From a phage: a stretch of DNA of 64,000 nucleotides. The first letter of the stretch is position 1, and the number at the start of each line of letters is the position of its first letter. The stretch lies in sequence record PZ534534.1, one strand, 5' to 3'. The position numbers were made by a program, and so were the translations under genes. Below, in pieces: positions 36,046 to 41,528 of the stretch. Below the pieces are notes generated by a model that was not told the origin of the DNA, made no database searches, and worked only from the letters and a program-made list of their open reading frames with translations.

Positions 36046-36106
36046 TAAGGTGTGAGTATAAAGGGGAGGCACTCCTCCCCACAAAAACTAAGGAGAGCAC
36101 CAAACG

Positions 36107-37432
36107 ATGAGTAAAACCAAATTAGAACTTACCTGGATAGGTAAAAACGAGCGCAAAAAGTTAGAGCCGCACATTTTGTTAGAAGATTCTAGCAAATCTT
36201 ACCACAGCCAGAAGGTGACCGAAAACGATATTTTTGATAATAAACTGATTTTTGGAGATAACTTATTAGCATTGAAGGCGCTAGAGCAAGAGTATGCATG
36301 CAAAGTGAAGTGTGTTTACATAGACCCACCATTCAATACCGGGAGGGCTTTTGAGCACTACGATGATAGCCTGGAGCATTCCATTTGGCTGGGCTTAATG
36401 AGGGATAGGTTAGAAATAATTCGTAATCTTCTGAGTGATGATGGGGTAATATTCGTTCACTTAGATGGTTGCGAAATGGCGTATTTAAAAGTTTTGATGG
36501 ACGAGATTTTTGGTCGTGCAAATCAGTTAAATACCATCTCGATGACCACAAATTCCCCTTCAGGATTTAAGGCAACAGGAGCCACAGTTTTCTCCACAGC
36601 AAACTTTTTGCTTGTATATGCAAAAGATCGCAACCAGAAACCGCTTAACAAAATCTATATACCTAAAGGGTATGATACAGGATATAACAAATACCTATTA
36701 AACCCGGATGACCATTATAAAAATTGGACGTGGTGTGGTATTGCCGATGCGTTTGCAAAGGCCAATGGCTATAAAGATGCAAAAGAAGCCAAGAAAAAAC
36801 TGCCTGACACATTCGATGATGAATTAGCACAATTCGCAATTGATAATGCAGAACGTGTATTTCAATCTGTTGCAATTGGTGGTGGTGCTAAAATAAAGAG
36901 AAAAGAAACTATCGAGAAGTCAAAGAAAGACAGGGATAAGGTTTATGTACATCCAAATGAGGATGTTGAAGGATTTTATATCGCAAATGGTAGGCAAATG
37001 GTCTTTTACTCCAACAGGCTTTTGGAAATTGACGGTGAGATGCAGCCTGCGGAACTAATAACTGATGTTTGGACAGATATTAGTTGGAATGGAATAGCAA
37101 ATGAAGGTGGCGTTAGTTTCAAAAATGGTAAAAAACCAGAAGCGCTTTTGAAGCGGATTTTCGAGATGTGTACGCGAGAAGGCGATTTGGTATTGGATTC
37201 ATTCGGTGGTTCGGGAACTACTGCTGCTGTAGCTCACAAAATGAAAAGACGTTGGATCTTGATCGAACTGGGTGATCATTGTCATACCCATATTATTCCG
37301 CGCTTGGAAAAAGTGATCGATGGCGAAGATCAAGGTGGTATTTCTAAGTCTGTAAACTGGCAAGGTGGTGGTGGCTTCCGTTATTACAAACTTACCCCGG
37401 CCTTAATTGCGAAAGATATGTCTGATCAATAA
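36107..37432 (+). CDS. DNA methyltransferase, beta-class (N6-adenine or N4-cytosine)
   Basis: Catalytic IDPPFNTG motif near N-term and SAM-binding LDSFGGSGTT near C-term. Confidence 0.6.
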   Translation: MSKTKLELTWIGKNERKKLEPHILLEDSSKSYHSQKVTENDIFDNKLIFGDNLLALKALEQEYACKVKCVYIDPPFNTGRAFEHYDDSLEHSIWLGLMRDRLEIIRNLLSDDGVIFVHLDGCEMAYLKVLMDEIFGRANQLNTISMTTNSPSGFKATGATVFSTANFLLVYAKDRNQKPLNKIYIPKGYDTGYNKYLLNPDDHYKNWTWCGIADAFAKANGYKDAKEAKKKLPDTFDDELAQFAIDNAERVFQSVAIGGGAKIKRKETIEKSKKDRDKVYVHPNEDVEGFYIANGRQMVFYSNRLLEIDGEMQPAELITDVWTDISWNGIANEGGVSFKNGKKPEALLKRIFEMCTREGDLVLDSFGGSGTTAAVAHKMKRRWILIELGDHCHTHIIPRLEKVIDGEDQGGISKSVNWQGGGGFRYYKLTPALIAKDMSDQ

Positions 37433-37445
37433 AGAGTACAATCAA

Positions 37446-37751
37446 ATGATGAAACGTTATAAACCATACACTTTTGAAATCGATTTCGAACTTGACGATA
37501 TGTTTACTGTAGAAGCTCAGGCAGTTGTCCAGTTGCCAGACCCGGAGTGCCGTGATTCTGATGTTGACTATTACGGATTTAGACAAATTACCGATGTGCA
37601 TGTTTACCACAACGGTGAAGAGGTGGACTTCCACCAACTGCCAAACGATTTGCGACACTCAATTTACAAACGTGCAGCCCGTGAACTAGAGTCCTATCTG
37701 GATGCAGCGACGACAGCAGCTGCATTTGCTGAAGAAGTGGGAGGTTTCTGA
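37446..37751 (+). CDS. hypothetical protein
   Basis: ORF-track start 37407 overlaps MTase; internal ATG 37446 taken as likelier start. Confidence 0.35.
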   Translation: MMKRYKPYTFEIDFELDDMFTVEAQAVVQLPDPECRDSDVDYYGFRQITDVHVYHNGEEVDFHQLPNDLRHSIYKRAARELESYLDAATTAAAFAEEVGGF

Positions 37752-38149
37752 TGATTACAGGTGTGAAGATTATCCAATACCACTTAACTAAATTGGAAGA
37801 TGCTGAAAAAGAGCTTGCAGAAGTTCTGAATAGTGGATATACTTTGCTATCATGCGCCTGCTCAGATACCTACGCTGTGTGGACACTTATCCGGAAGGAA
37901 GAGCCTGCGGGGATCTTGGTGCCAAACCCTAAGATCATTAGTGAGGTGGATGACTATGCTCAGGACGGCCTGCCAGAAGGCTGGGAAGTATGGGAAGGTG
38001 GTGAAAACCCTGCACCAGGTAAGTGGGTAAAATACAAACTACGTAGCGGTGCACAGTACGCTGACTACTCTGATGACCTGGATTGGAGTCATTCTTCACC
38101 AGGATCATCTGCAAGTTCATATGATATCATAGCTTTTCAGGAAGAATAA
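37751..38149 (+). CDS. hypothetical protein
   Basis: 132 aa ORF, ATGA overlap with upstream gene. Confidence 0.4.
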   Translation: MITGVKIIQYHLTKLEDAEKELAEVLNSGYTLLSCACSDTYAVWTLIRKEEPAGILVPNPKIISEVDDYAQDGLPEGWEVWEGGENPAPGKWVKYKLRSGAQYADYSDDLDWSHSSPGSSASSYDIIAFQEE

Positions 38150-38161
38150 GGAGATAGTGTT

Positions 38162-38644
38162 ATGTCAGATTTTATGTGGAAAGTAGGTTACGCAGCTCCT
38201 GAAATGTGTGAGGCTTGCTTTGTGAAAATAGGCCGCGAGGATATCGACAAAGTGATCCTTAAGTTTCGTGATGTGGCTGTGATCGGCAACCGAGTGCTTA
38301 AGCACTTAAAGAATCTGAAGCTCACTAAAAAGAAGTTCTTCGGACTTTTCGAAGAGAAAGTTGATGCTTGGACCCATTGCATCCAGGAAGCTAAATCTCA
38401 CTACAGTGCTATCGTTACTCCAGAACGGGTAGCCAAGATGGAAGGATTCATCAACAGCACAGAATTTGAGTGTCTGAAAGCTGCACTCGATAGTTATCCG
38501 AAATGCCTCAAGCACTTGGACAAGTATGTAGAAAAGGATGGGGAAATGTATCTCACCCTGGACGCATACTATGAGATGCAAGAAATTTTAAATTTAGATT
38601 TGACATTGGTATCCACCGAGTATACAATAGGTATCCGGGTTTAA
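38162..38644 (+). CDS. hypothetical protein
   Basis: 160 aa ORF with GGAGA RBS. Confidence 0.4.
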   Translation: MSDFMWKVGYAAPEMCEACFVKIGREDIDKVILKFRDVAVIGNRVLKHLKNLKLTKKKFFGLFEEKVDAWTHCIQEAKSHYSAIVTPERVAKMEGFINSTEFECLKAALDSYPKCLKHLDKYVEKDGEMYLTLDAYYEMQEILNLDLTLVSTEYTIGIRV

Positions 38645-38650
38645 CACTAG

Positions 38651-38677
38651 GCCCTGCCCGAAAGGGTGGGGCTTTTT
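38651..38677 (+). terminator. rho-independent terminator with GAAA tetraloop
   Basis: CCCUGCCC-GAAA-GGGUGGGG stem (two G-U pairs) followed by CTTTTT. Confidence 0.55.
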
Positions 38678-38695
38678 GCATTAGGAGACAGCAAA

Positions 38696-39460
38696 TTGAA
38701 ATTCATCTACAAAGAACACTACCACAAAGGTGTTGTGTGGAGTCTATTTGACGGGTCTGGTGGTGCAGTTATTGACTGGGCAAAAGCTGGGTACCTGTGC
38801 CTGTGCTTTAATGCAGAAGGTGCTGACCACGGCAGTTATGCAGAGGTGATAACCGATCATCCTAACATTCACTATGTGGATTATTGGATTGACCCATGGT
38901 TCCCTCAAGAAACTTTTTGCATGTATCCAGCTCCAGACTTTATTCTTGCATTTCCTCCGTGCACGCATTTAGCGGTATCAGGAGCTGCACACTTTAAGAA
39001 AAAGCTGGCTAAGGACCCACTGATCCAAATTAATGCTGTAAAGGATGCTCGGGTTGCGGAAGAGTTGGGAGAGATTTACGATTGCCCGTGGCATGTAGAG
39101 AATCCTGTAGGTGTTATGTCCACACTGTGGCGCAAACCTGATTACCGTTTTCACCCTTCGGATTATGGCGGGTATTTACCGGAAGATGATGTAAATCCAT
39201 GGTTTCCTGAATTTATAGCTCCACGTGATGCCTATCCAAAAATAACTTGCGGCTGGATAGGTAATGGATTTATAATCCCAGCCACAAAACCTGTCCCGCA
39301 AATAGTTGACGTGGTTAGCGGGTATTCCATGCAACACGCCAAGCTGGGTGGAAAGAGTGCAAGAACGAAGATGATTCGAAGCCTCACACCACGTGGCTGG
39401 GCAAAAGCCGTATTCTTAGCAAACGAGCCTGTAGTAAGGAGCAGAATTAATGGGAAGTAA
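38696..39460 (+). CDS. compact C5-cytosine methyltransferase-like protein
   Basis: LFDGSGGA (motif I-like), FPPCT (motif IV-like, PCT not PCQ), HVENP (motif VI-like); TTG start after AGGAGA. Confidence 0.4.
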   Translation: MKFIYKEHYHKGVVWSLFDGSGGAVIDWAKAGYLCLCFNAEGADHGSYAEVITDHPNIHYVDYWIDPWFPQETFCMYPAPDFILAFPPCTHLAVSGAAHFKKKLAKDPLIQINAVKDARVAEELGEIYDCPWHVENPVGVMSTLWRKPDYRFHPSDYGGYLPEDDVNPWFPEFIAPRDAYPKITCGWIGNGFIIPATKPVPQIVDVVSGYSMQHAKLGGKSARTKMIRSLTPRGWAKAVFLANEPVVRSRINGK

Positions 39461-41528
39461 ATTTATGGCATCTGCATACAACCGTTTCGGTGAGCCAAAC
39501 CCGGTTGCAACAAGATACAAAAGTGGGGGTAGTATGAAACGAGACTATCGTGATGAAAAAGAGGTTGAAACTGTAGAGACTGTTTTAGAAAATACTAAAA
39601 TTGTCCCTGTCCCACAACAAAATATCGGTCTGATGGCTGCACAATATTTTGGTGTGCGATCAGCATTGTCCCAAGAAGATGGTGTGACAGTCACTGCAAC
39701 ATATTTCCCATATTACGACCGCTACGGAAATCTGTCCGGTTTCAAAAAGCGTGACTGGACTAAGCCGAAAGAGCAGAAAGGGCACTGGTCTGTAGTAGGC
39801 ATAGTGAAGGCTAACTCCCAGATGTTTGGTCAAAAGCTGTGTGCATCTTCCAACAACCGTAAGCAGATTAACGTTTGTGAGGGAGAAGGTGATGTTATTG
39901 CAGCATGGCAGGCTGCATATCAGATACAAGTAAAAGGGATTCTCACCAACGCTAAAGCCCCGGCAAAAGTGAAGCAGTGGGCTAAAGAGGTCCAGGACGG
40001 GATCGACGCAGTTATCAACGGTGGTGATCTGGCAGGAAAACCCTGCCTACCTTTTGTTGGAATTAACTGTGGATGTGCAAACGCAGTAGATACTTTTGCA
40101 AACAATGAGAAATTTATCCGTAGCTACGGAACAGTGGTCCTTGCAATGGACAACGATGCAGCTAACGAGATAGAGAAGCAAAAACACGTTATCAAAGGTG
40201 TTGAAGCCACACATAATATCGCAGCATTTTTGATGGCTGATAACGTTTACCACGTGGAATATCCTGGCGAGGTAAACGACCCTGATGGTGTAAAAGATAT
40301 CCGTGACATGCTGAAGGCTAAAAAGCTGGAAGATATTGTAAACATGTTCCGGCATCCTGTTAAGTATGTGCCGGATGCTGTGTCGGATTTAGAAGACTTC
40401 TCTATCGAATCTTTGCGGAAAAAGACTTCCAACGGGGTAGATATCAGCGCAGAGTTCCCAAAACTGCAAAAAATGCTGAAAGGCTTGCACAAAGGGACAC
40501 TTGTAATGCTTACAGGTCCATCAGGAGGCGGTAAAACAACTGTAGCTAAAAAACTGGAACACTGTATTGCAAGATACCTAATGGACCCGACATGTCCAAA
40601 GGCTGATGATTACGAAGAGGATGATCGTCTATGCATGATTCATCTTGAGGAGGACCCAGAGGAAGCAATTAACTCCTTGTATGCAAACCAGTTAGGGTTT
40701 GATGTTAAAGAGTTTGTTGAAGATCCTAGCCAGTTTTTAACTGATCAAGAACACGCAGAGATTCACCAATCATGGGCAAAAGCTGGAAAAATCAAAGTGT
40801 TCAAACATTTCGGATCTATTCCGGTGGACGAGTTGATTACCAAGCTTAAGCAAATGGTTTGCCTGTACCATTGCCGTTATATTGTGCTGGATCACCTGTC
40901 CATGGTAATTTCAGGGCTTAATGTTAAGGATGAGCGAAAAGAGCTGGACATGGCTATGACCCAACTGGCTGCGTTTTGTAAGCAGTTTAACGTGTTTATC
41001 CTAGTGATCGCTCACCTCAAACGTACAGAGATTGTGCCTCCTAAGGACAAGGATGGTAACCCGTTACCTTTCTGGTATCCTGTGCGAAAAGAGAATTTGC
41101 GAGGATCGGCTGGGCTTGAACAGTTGAGTTGGGTAGTCATAGGTGTTGAGGCTGAAGAAATGGTAGATCGTTCTCGTGGTCGTGTCCGTTTAGTAGGTCT
41201 TAAAAACCGTCCAGCAAAAACATTGGGTATTGCGGATACTTTGGTTATGGACCCACATACAGGTAAGTTCCATGATGCCAGTAATTGGTACTGGGACAAA
41301 GAAATGCAGATGTTTACAGACGGAGAAGGTGGGGAGGTTGTTTGGAGACCTCAGGCCATGTTTGAGGACCAAGAGCATGCAGTTGTAGAAACACCTATGG
41401 GCAAGGTTGTAGCTGATAAGGTTGTAACTCCTACTATTAAGCCTGTTGACACGCAGGAAGACCTCCAGTACGATGATCCATCTTCTGATCCGGTCCCCGG
41501 TTTTGAAGATGATGAAACACCTTTTTAA
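39450..41528 (+). CDS. primase-helicase (TOPRIM plus DnaB-family helicase)
   Basis: TOPRIM-like CEGEGDVIAAW; Walker A GPSGGGKTT; Walker B IVLDHL; 692 aa. Confidence 0.6.
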   Translation: MGSKFMASAYNRFGEPNPVATRYKSGGSMKRDYRDEKEVETVETVLENTKIVPVPQQNIGLMAAQYFGVRSALSQEDGVTVTATYFPYYDRYGNLSGFKKRDWTKPKEQKGHWSVVGIVKANSQMFGQKLCASSNNRKQINVCEGEGDVIAAWQAAYQIQVKGILTNAKAPAKVKQWAKEVQDGIDAVINGGDLAGKPCLPFVGINCGCANAVDTFANNEKFIRSYGTVVLAMDNDAANEIEKQKHVIKGVEATHNIAAFLMADNVYHVEYPGEVNDPDGVKDIRDMLKAKKLEDIVNMFRHPVKYVPDAVSDLEDFSIESLRKKTSNGVDISAEFPKLQKMLKGLHKGTLVMLTGPSGGGKTTVAKKLEHCIARYLMDPTCPKADDYEEDDRLCMIHLEEDPEEAINSLYANQLGFDVKEFVEDPSQFLTDQEHAEIHQSWAKAGKIKVFKHFGSIPVDELITKLKQMVCLYHCRYIVLDHLSMVISGLNVKDERKELDMAMTQLAAFCKQFNVFILVIAHLKRTEIVPPKDKDGNPLPFWYPVRKENLRGSAGLEQLSWVVIGVEAEEMVDRSRGRVRLVGLKNRPAKTLGIADTLVMDPHTGKFHDASNWYWDKEMQMFTDGEGGEVVWRPQAMFEDQEHAVVETPMGKVVADKVVTPTIKPVDTQEDLQYDDPSSDPVPGFEDDETPF

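Follow-up and report, generated by a model that had tools for sequence, protein, structure and literature searches.

What do the two methyltransferase-like genes beside the replication genes of this phage encode, and does the smaller of them, whose catalytic motifs depart from the canonical ones, follow an unusual chemistry? We addressed both questions in a stretch of 64,000 nucleotides of phage DNA (PZ534534.1; hereafter the window), in which all features given with coordinates below lie on the plus strand. The two open reading frames (ORFs) were found where a first-pass annotation had placed them, ORF A, of 441 residues, at 36107–37432 and ORF B, of 254 residues, at 38696–39460. We read them as two independent orphan DNA methyltransferase genes, with ORF A resembling the Mod subunits of type III systems and ORF B being a compact, Dcm-like DNA C5-cytosine methyltransferase, and give this reading a probability of about 0.85. 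The phage is a Vequintavirus, i.e., an rV5-like Escherichia coli myophage from a well-sequenced group, and both genes are already known: dozens of near-identical rV5-like genomes have them annotated, and for the family of ORF B a characterized member exists. Genes, motifs, family membership and fold were established here, and the formation of 5-methylcytosine (5mC) and the triggering of retrons were established for that family member; the activity, product and target of ORF A and ORF B are inferred.

ORF B belongs to a large family of compact phage proteins. Upon searching profile hidden Markov models, we obtained a match to phrog_757 ('DNA methyltransferase') with E = 7e-87 over profile positions 3–226 of 247. 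The family comprises 3,537 clusters at 90% identity and 1,009 at 50% identity (E < 1e-3), with homologs in 1,504 of 50,697 phage records, mostly from Escherichia, Klebsiella and Salmonella phages; its members typically measure 220–260 residues and are named 'DNA cytosine methyltransferase' in some sources. As the first-pass annotation had noticed, motifs I, IV and VI of ORF B follow the order of C5-methyltransferases, with PCT and ENP where the classical type II enzymes have PCQ and ENV. Motif I, which binds S-adenosylmethionine (SAM), reads LFDGSGG (residues 17–23, 38744–38764) and aligns with LFAGIGG of E. coli Dcm and LFSGAGG of M.HaeIII; motif IV reads FPPCTHLAVSG with the catalytic Cys89 (residues 86–96, 38951–38983); and motif VI reads VENPVG with Glu135 (residues 134–139, 39095–39112). 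The segment RDAYPKITCGW (39224–39256), in which Y180, K182, T184 and W187 are conserved, is likely the counterpart of motif VIII and a substrate contact. Near the C-terminus, IRSLTPRGWAKAVF (39374–39415; R228, S229, P232, G234 and A238 at least 90% conserved) looks, from its sequence, like fused motifs IX and X.

The departures from PCQ and ENV turned out to be shared by the whole family. Residues C89, G96, E135, P137, P154, Y180, W187 and P195 were invariant among 61 diverse members that we aligned, the source of all family conservation figures given here; T90, N136, K182, R228, S229, P232 and G234 were at least 90% conserved, and the loop at residues 196–214 was the most variable part. Since this takes in C89 and T90 of motif IV as well as E135, N136 and P137 of motif VI, PCT and ENP are the normal signature of the family, and no peculiarity of ORF B, in which all of its elements (PCT, ENP, RDAY.K.T..W and IRS.TPRG) are present. 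Hence, the earlier view of these motifs as unusual does not hold, and a Dcm-like annotation already exists in near-identical genomes: the Bas51 ortholog, identical at 252 of 254 residues (99%), is annotated as 'Dcm-like C5 cytosine methyltransferase'. Many compact Dcm-like members lack one or both glycines of motif I (e.g., LYDHST, LFAYTT, LCNESR) and keep the catalytic Cys and Glu; ORF B itself has the full FxGxGG motif.

The likely product of ORF B can be judged from a homolog, the 711-bp dcm gene of the KarlJaspers-type phage K42, which was studied in a preprint on retron Ec86. There, phages escaping the retron had a disrupted dcm gene, expression of K42 Dcm was toxic only in the presence of Ec86, mass spectrometry coupled to liquid chromatography (LC-MS) showed raised 5mC in the multicopy single-stranded DNA (msDNA) in vivo, and a C82A/E128A/K175A/K176A variant, whose four residues were mutated only together, was inactive (bioRxiv 10.1101/2023.08.16.553469). 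The conclusion that Dcm triggers retron Ec86/Eco1 has been repeated (PMC12916289). The dcm gene of Bas06 KarlJaspers likewise measures 711 bp, and its product shares 54% identity with ORF B over the full length; C82, E128 and K175 of the K42/KarlJaspers protein have C89, E135 and K182 of ORF B as their counterparts, and K176 corresponds to I183, which is not conserved. The K42/Bas06 Dcm (236 residues) and ORF B are both compact phrog_757 proteins with PCT and ENP motifs, and both are orphans in the early/replication region of their phage. They differ in that the former stems from a siphovirus (Drexlerviridae) and the latter from an rV5-like myovirus, and in that ORF B is 18 residues longer, with extra residues at both ends.

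Structure prediction connected ORF B to the classical enzymes. An AlphaFold2 model built on the family alignment reached a predicted local distance difference test score (pLDDT) of 93.6 and a predicted template modeling score (pTM) of 0.92, and Foldseek comparison with the PDB returned the catalytic domains of DNMT3A/DNMT3B as the best matches (E ~3e-6), with the prophage CP-933R methylase 3g7u also listed. Judged by this model, the fold is that of a C5-methyltransferase: ORF B and DNMT3A/DNMT3B (6u8p, 4u7t) share the Rossmann core of these enzymes, with ~192 of 254 residues aligning at 3.2 Å, at a sequence identity of 13–14%. Of the classical C5-methyltransferases, DNMT3A and DNMT3B are those with the smallest target-recognition domains, in keeping with their rank as the best fold matches; the motifs of DNMT3 enzymes read PCN and ENV, and these enzymes act as oligomers on CpG. 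The first-pass annotation had seen little room for a target-recognition domain in ORF B, and this is borne out by the ~45 residues that separate K182 from the motif IX/X-like IRSLTPRGW, which are mostly coil in the model; ORF B has no separate target-recognition domain. At 254 residues, it is much smaller than enzymes of the E. coli Dcm, M.HhaI and M.HaeIII type (324–472 residues), with which it presumably shares the same 5mC-forming reaction.

Several sequence comparisons weigh against this assignment to the C5-methyltransferases. Pfam and NCBIfam yielded no match to ORF B, whose scores fell below every threshold, PF00145 included, and only 7 of the 61 family members matched PF00145, weakly (best E = 1.3e-4). 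Searches of the PDB with phmmer and with the family profile were likewise non-significant (M.HaeIII, E = 0.41; DNMT2, E = 0.7), as was the hhalign comparison of ORF B with E. coli Dcm (E = 0.22). Despite these scores, motifs I, IV and VI of ORF B were collinear and correctly aligned with those of M.HaeIII, DNMT2 and E. coli Dcm. We thus place ORF B in the superfamily on the basis of its predicted fold. The missing Pfam and NCBIfam matches, the lack of a recognizable motif VIII (QxRxR) in ORF B, and the loss of motif I glycines in many family members would also be expected of a catalytically dead or non-DNA-modifying relic, which might serve as a DNA-binding or regulatory protein or as an RNA methyltransferase like DNMT2. 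We consider this quite improbable, as ORF B keeps the full FxGxGG, the PC dipeptide and the glutamate of ENx, as no family member in the alignment departs from the catalytic Cys or Glu, and as the K42 homolog methylates DNA (msDNA) in vivo. Moreover, DNA methyltransferases outscored DNMT2 in the structure comparison, and ORF B is almost unchanged among seven related phages (~97–99% DNA identity), in all of which it is intact with only 1–3 residue differences.

A methyltransferase homolog with altered chemistry, an option that the first-pass annotation had raised beside that of a compact orphan methyltransferase, might, for instance, use carboxy-S-adenosylmethionine (Cx-SAM) as the donor of a carboxymethyl group or start a hypermodification. 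A precedent exists in phage CmoX, a C5-methyltransferase homolog that uses Cx-SAM and recognizes it through an Arg replacing the Asn of motif X; next to its gene there is usually one for a phage CmoA (PMC12783734). Cx-SAM is made by E. coli itself (PMC12783734), and ORF B, besides departing from PCQ and ENV, carries an Arg in the 'PRGW' segment that resembles motif X. That Arg, however, is not among the family columns conserved to at least 90%, and DNMT3A uses SAM in spite of a 'GRSW' motif X. No CmoA or CmoY-like ligase is listed in the genome annotation of Bas51, Vequintavirinae are highly sensitive to restriction-modification (RM) systems, and their DNA is routinely nanopore-sequenced and methylation-called. 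The 54%-identical K42 Dcm raised 5mC as measured by LC-MS, whereas CmoX accepts only Cx-SAM, and with ordinary 5mC reported for a family member, altered chemistry of ORF B is very unlikely, even more so than the relic. Of the two options raised earlier, the compact orphan methyltransferase is therefore the one that stands. More generally, neither Pfam nor NCBIfam detects the compact Dcm-like family, members of which are often labeled 'hypothetical', and PCT and ENP motifs should not be taken to imply exotic chemistry.

For the target sequence of ORF B, the comparison with K42 is less telling. That K42 Dcm targets CCWGG was taken over from the host Dcm as an assumption, the evidence being limited to the mutation of a CCTGG site in the msDNA (bioRxiv 10.1101/2023.08.16.553469), and the loop at residues 196–214 of ORF B is unrelated to the corresponding part of KarlJaspers Dcm, so that the target may differ; both points weigh against a simple transfer of the specificity. 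We put the odds that ORF B targets CCWGG at about even, and it is about as likely that ORF B, or the Vequintavirus branch as a whole, recognizes some other sequence set by this loop. In the genome, CCWGG is not avoided (1.3–1.5 times the zero-order expectation), which is compatible with CCWGG methylation and not diagnostic of it. In the literature, we found no usable published 5mC/methylome data on Vequintavirus and no retron-Eco1 tests on Vequintavirinae.

ORF A, as the first-pass annotation had proposed, is a standard beta-class amino-methyltransferase. It matched the Pfam family PF01555 (N6_N4_Mtase) with 144 bits (cut-off 26.7; E = 8e-42) and phrog_67 with E = 4e-61. Its catalytic motif IV, DPPF (residues 73–76, 36323–36334), aligns with 'IDPPYNTG' of the Mod protein 6k0w, and its SAM-binding motif I, FGGSG (residues 366–370, 37202–37216), aligns with 'FAGSGTT' of the same protein; as motif IV is N-terminal to motif I, the order is that of the beta class. 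The N-terminal LTWIGK segment (36128–36145), of a kind common to type III Mod subunits, aligns with 'ELTWTGK' of 6k0w. The best relatives in the PDB were all type III Mod proteins, namely 6k0w (2.3e-28), EcoP15I Mod (7.3e-24) and Mbo45V (4e-18). With these proteins (EcoP15I Mod, 4zcf; Helicobacter pylori Mod, 6k0w; Mbo45V, 7dsu), ORF A shares, in identical order, LxWxGK, a DPPF/Y motif IV, a 'GVIF..D..E...LK.L.DEIFG' block and an FxGSGTT motif I, but it is ~150–200 residues shorter (441 versus 567–644 residues), with a reduced central recognition region. Type III systems also pair Mod with Res, whereas no Res gene was found near ORF A, whose neighbors encode a PIF1/Dda-like superfamily 1 (SF1) helicase, rIIA/rIIB and small unknown proteins, nor is a Res subunit so named among the 236 annotated features of Bas51. 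With no Res partner adjoining or annotated, ORF A is an orphan, a DNA methyltransferase of the beta class that resembles type III Mod subunits and is probably adenine N6-specific. A ribosome-binding site, AAGGAGAG (36090–36097), precedes its ATG by 9 nt.

Published data on Bas51, whose ortholog of ORF A (bas51_0070) is identical at 434 of 441 residues (98%), allowed us to ask which methylation mark ORF A might write. An N6 adenine methyltransferase of this phage writes G6mATC, is toxic and triggers the retrons Asa1 and Squ1 (PMC12548924). Three putative adenine methylases are encoded in the annotated Bas51 genome. We considered bas51_0070 as the GATC methylase and rejected it, as it has C, G and E at positions 69, 79 and 83; of the three, only bas51_0176 (177 residues; D, D and T), which is encoded outside the window, accommodates the escape mutations D69G, D79G and T83P. 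Counting against an assigned role for ORF A, the published G6mATC writer of Bas51 is thus bas51_0176 and not the ORF A ortholog. The nanopore source data, however, contain a second mark: N6-methyladenine (6mA) was called at 1,405 GATC, 509 GTAC and 576 other positions in wild-type Bas51 DNA, compared to 35 GATC, 511 GTAC and 349 other positions in the bas51_0176 T83P mutant (PMC12548924). Set against the 703 GATC and 258 GTAC sites of the Bas51 genome, these numbers indicate that essentially every GATC and GTAC strand is methylated (~510 GTAC calls for 258 sites on both strands, ~99%), and the GTAC count was unchanged when the GATC methylase bas51_0176 was inactivated. To our knowledge, E. coli K-12 has no GTAC methylase, and with full methylation of GTAC this indicates that the GT6mAC mark is phage-encoded. 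Phage-encoded DNA methylation is therefore real in the genus Vequintavirus, with Bas51 virion DNA methylated to ~100% at GATC and GTAC. The GT6mAC mark of Bas51, although complete, awaits the assignment of a writer, for which the ORF A ortholog bas51_0070 and bas51_0200 are the two candidates.

These data also bear on the idea that ORF A modifies cytosine at N4 instead of adenine at N6, since the 6mA at GTAC and the ~350 further 6mA calls in Bas51 need a writer. PF01555 includes enzymes of both kinds, the ORF A ortholog is labeled 'modification methylase BamHI' in some records, M.BamHI being an N4-cytosine enzyme, and N4-cytosine enzymes (M.PvuII, 8s9n) appear among the weaker PDB matches. Yet these matches reached only ~1e-5 and covered the motif I region only, far behind the type III Mod adenine enzymes (2e-28 and 7e-24), and the motif IV of ORF A is DPPF, whereas SPPY or SPPF is the commoner form in N4-cytosine enzymes. 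We accordingly regard N4-cytosine specificity as unlikely, albeit less remote than either of the two alternatives discussed for ORF B, and keep N6-adenine as the probable target of ORF A.

At two positions, the ORF A of the window departs from its relatives. It has Gly121 (nucleotides 36467–36469, in the 'HLDDCE' block) and Cys65 (nucleotides 36299–36301), where related Vequintaviruses have Asp121 in six of seven cases and Gly65 in all seven, with G121 common only to phage VB-EcoM-WM. The Gly at a position that is Asp in most relatives speaks, if anything, against an active ORF A in this phage, but position 121 is D, D or H in the type III Mods, and as EcoP15I Mod has His there, D121G allows no conclusion as an inactivating change. 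The residue changes may be neutral, or of the escape type in a methylase that could trigger defenses. In O157 typing phage 14, the counterpart of ORF A is split by a frameshift.

We suggest the following mode of action for the two enzymes. ORF A and ORF B would be transcribed together with the replication genes, which would allow phage DNA to be methylated during its synthesis. ORF A would transfer a methyl group from SAM to the N6 of adenine within a short motif. ORF B would bind SAM through motif I and flip out the target cytosine, upon which Cys89 would attack C6, Glu135 would protonate N3, and the methyl group would be transferred to C5 to yield 5mC. The short and mostly coil stretch of residues ~161–232 would replace a large target-recognition domain, much as in DNMT3A/DNMT3B, and CCWGG, proposed as the target of the K42 homolog, may be the target of ORF B too, this being the least certain of these steps. 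The likely benefit to the phage would be protection from restriction enzymes that cut the cognate sites, and the known cost of such methylases is that retron defenses can be triggered. As phage methylases of both kinds are known retron triggers, ORF A and ORF B may shape the host range of rV5-like therapeutic phages.

The protective benefit needs to be weighed against the behavior of the phages themselves. In the BASEL study, Vequintavirinae were exceptionally sensitive to all six RM systems tested, which argues against general protection and indicates that any protection is limited to particular sites; the anti-restriction role that the first-pass annotation had envisaged for ORF B gains little from these observations. 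Site frequencies add to this picture. RCCGGY was nearly absent, with 5 occurrences among 203 CCGG sites in Bas51 and 5 among 109 in the window, and several GC-rich 6-bp palindromes (GGCGCC, GCCGGC, CGGCCG, CCGCGG and GCTAGC) did not occur at all in either. In both, GTAC was likewise avoided, at 0.6 of the Markov expectation, and neither GATC nor CCWGG was avoided. This pattern, which cannot assign specificities, points to type II restriction by the host as the selective force, rather than to a modification that protects the DNA in general.

The start and the surroundings of ORF B were examined as well. The TTG start given by the first-pass annotation is right, backed by the ribosome-binding site AGGAGA (38683–38688) 7 nt upstream, and the orthologs in GenBank mostly have the same 254-residue form. 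Just ahead lies an intrinsic-terminator-like hairpin (38649–38679; 11-bp stem, GAAA loop and U5 tail; free energy −24.5 kcal/mol, z = −2.1), which is annotated as a terminator in phage Gotham and is the terminator of the upstream gene. A longer form, starting at a GTG at 38666 as proposed by the ORF finder, was rejected, as this codon lies inside the hairpin and lacks a ribosome-binding site. Inside the end of the upstream gene, we noted a sigma-70-like promoter match, TTGACA-17-TACAAT (38600–38628; 11 of 12 positions), which is a match to the consensus only, of a kind no more numerous in the region than in shuffled sequence. The stretch 38600–38679 and what follows thus present an odd arrangement of a near-consensus promoter, a strong terminator-like hairpin and then the ribosome-binding site of ORF B, which may serve regulated read-through into a unit of ORF B and the primase/helicase gene. 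The end of ORF B overlaps the ATG of this DNA primase/helicase gene (39450–41528; phrog_239 at 6e-160) by 11 nt, suggesting translational coupling. An Rfam search of the window yielded no RNA family.

Across the region, rIIA and rIIB are followed by the gene for the PIF1/Dda-like helicase and one small ORF; after ORF A come three small ORFs and then ORF B, with the primase/helicase, homing endonuclease and DNA polymerase genes next in line. The three small conserved genes between ORF A and ORF B (37449–37751, 37751–38149 and 38162–38644; together 37449–38644, from the ORF list) match phrog_4240, phrog_11995 and phrog_12900, all of unknown function, and are labeled hypothetical in Bas51. The first of them, directly 3' of ORF A, matches phrog_4240 at 6e-33, and its product also shows a weak match (4e-5) to the C-terminal part of phrog_1573, labeled 'DNA methyltransferase'; going by this similarity, it may be a small domain that is elsewhere fused to methylases.

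Among deposited phages, the 3.5-kb region that holds both methyltransferase genes is widespread. It was found in 102 phage genomes at 97–99% DNA identity, and 86 of the 118 matching records covered at least 80% of it. Nearly all of these records are of Vequintavirus, rV5-like E. coli myophages such as VB-EcoM-WM, Gotham, JES2013 and the BASEL phage Bas51 (WalterGehring). Phage-encoded homologs of ORF A at 90% identity or more occurred only in rV5-like records, followed by those of true Campylobacter phages at 37–40%. Sixteen unannotated GenBank records (MG0656xx) that are titled 'Campylobacter phage', with C. jejuni as the host, were 97% identical to the E. coli Vequintavirus region. Since genuine Campylobacter phages reach only 37–40% protein identity to ORF A, these sixteen records look, by their sequence, like mislabeled or contaminant E. 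coli phages.

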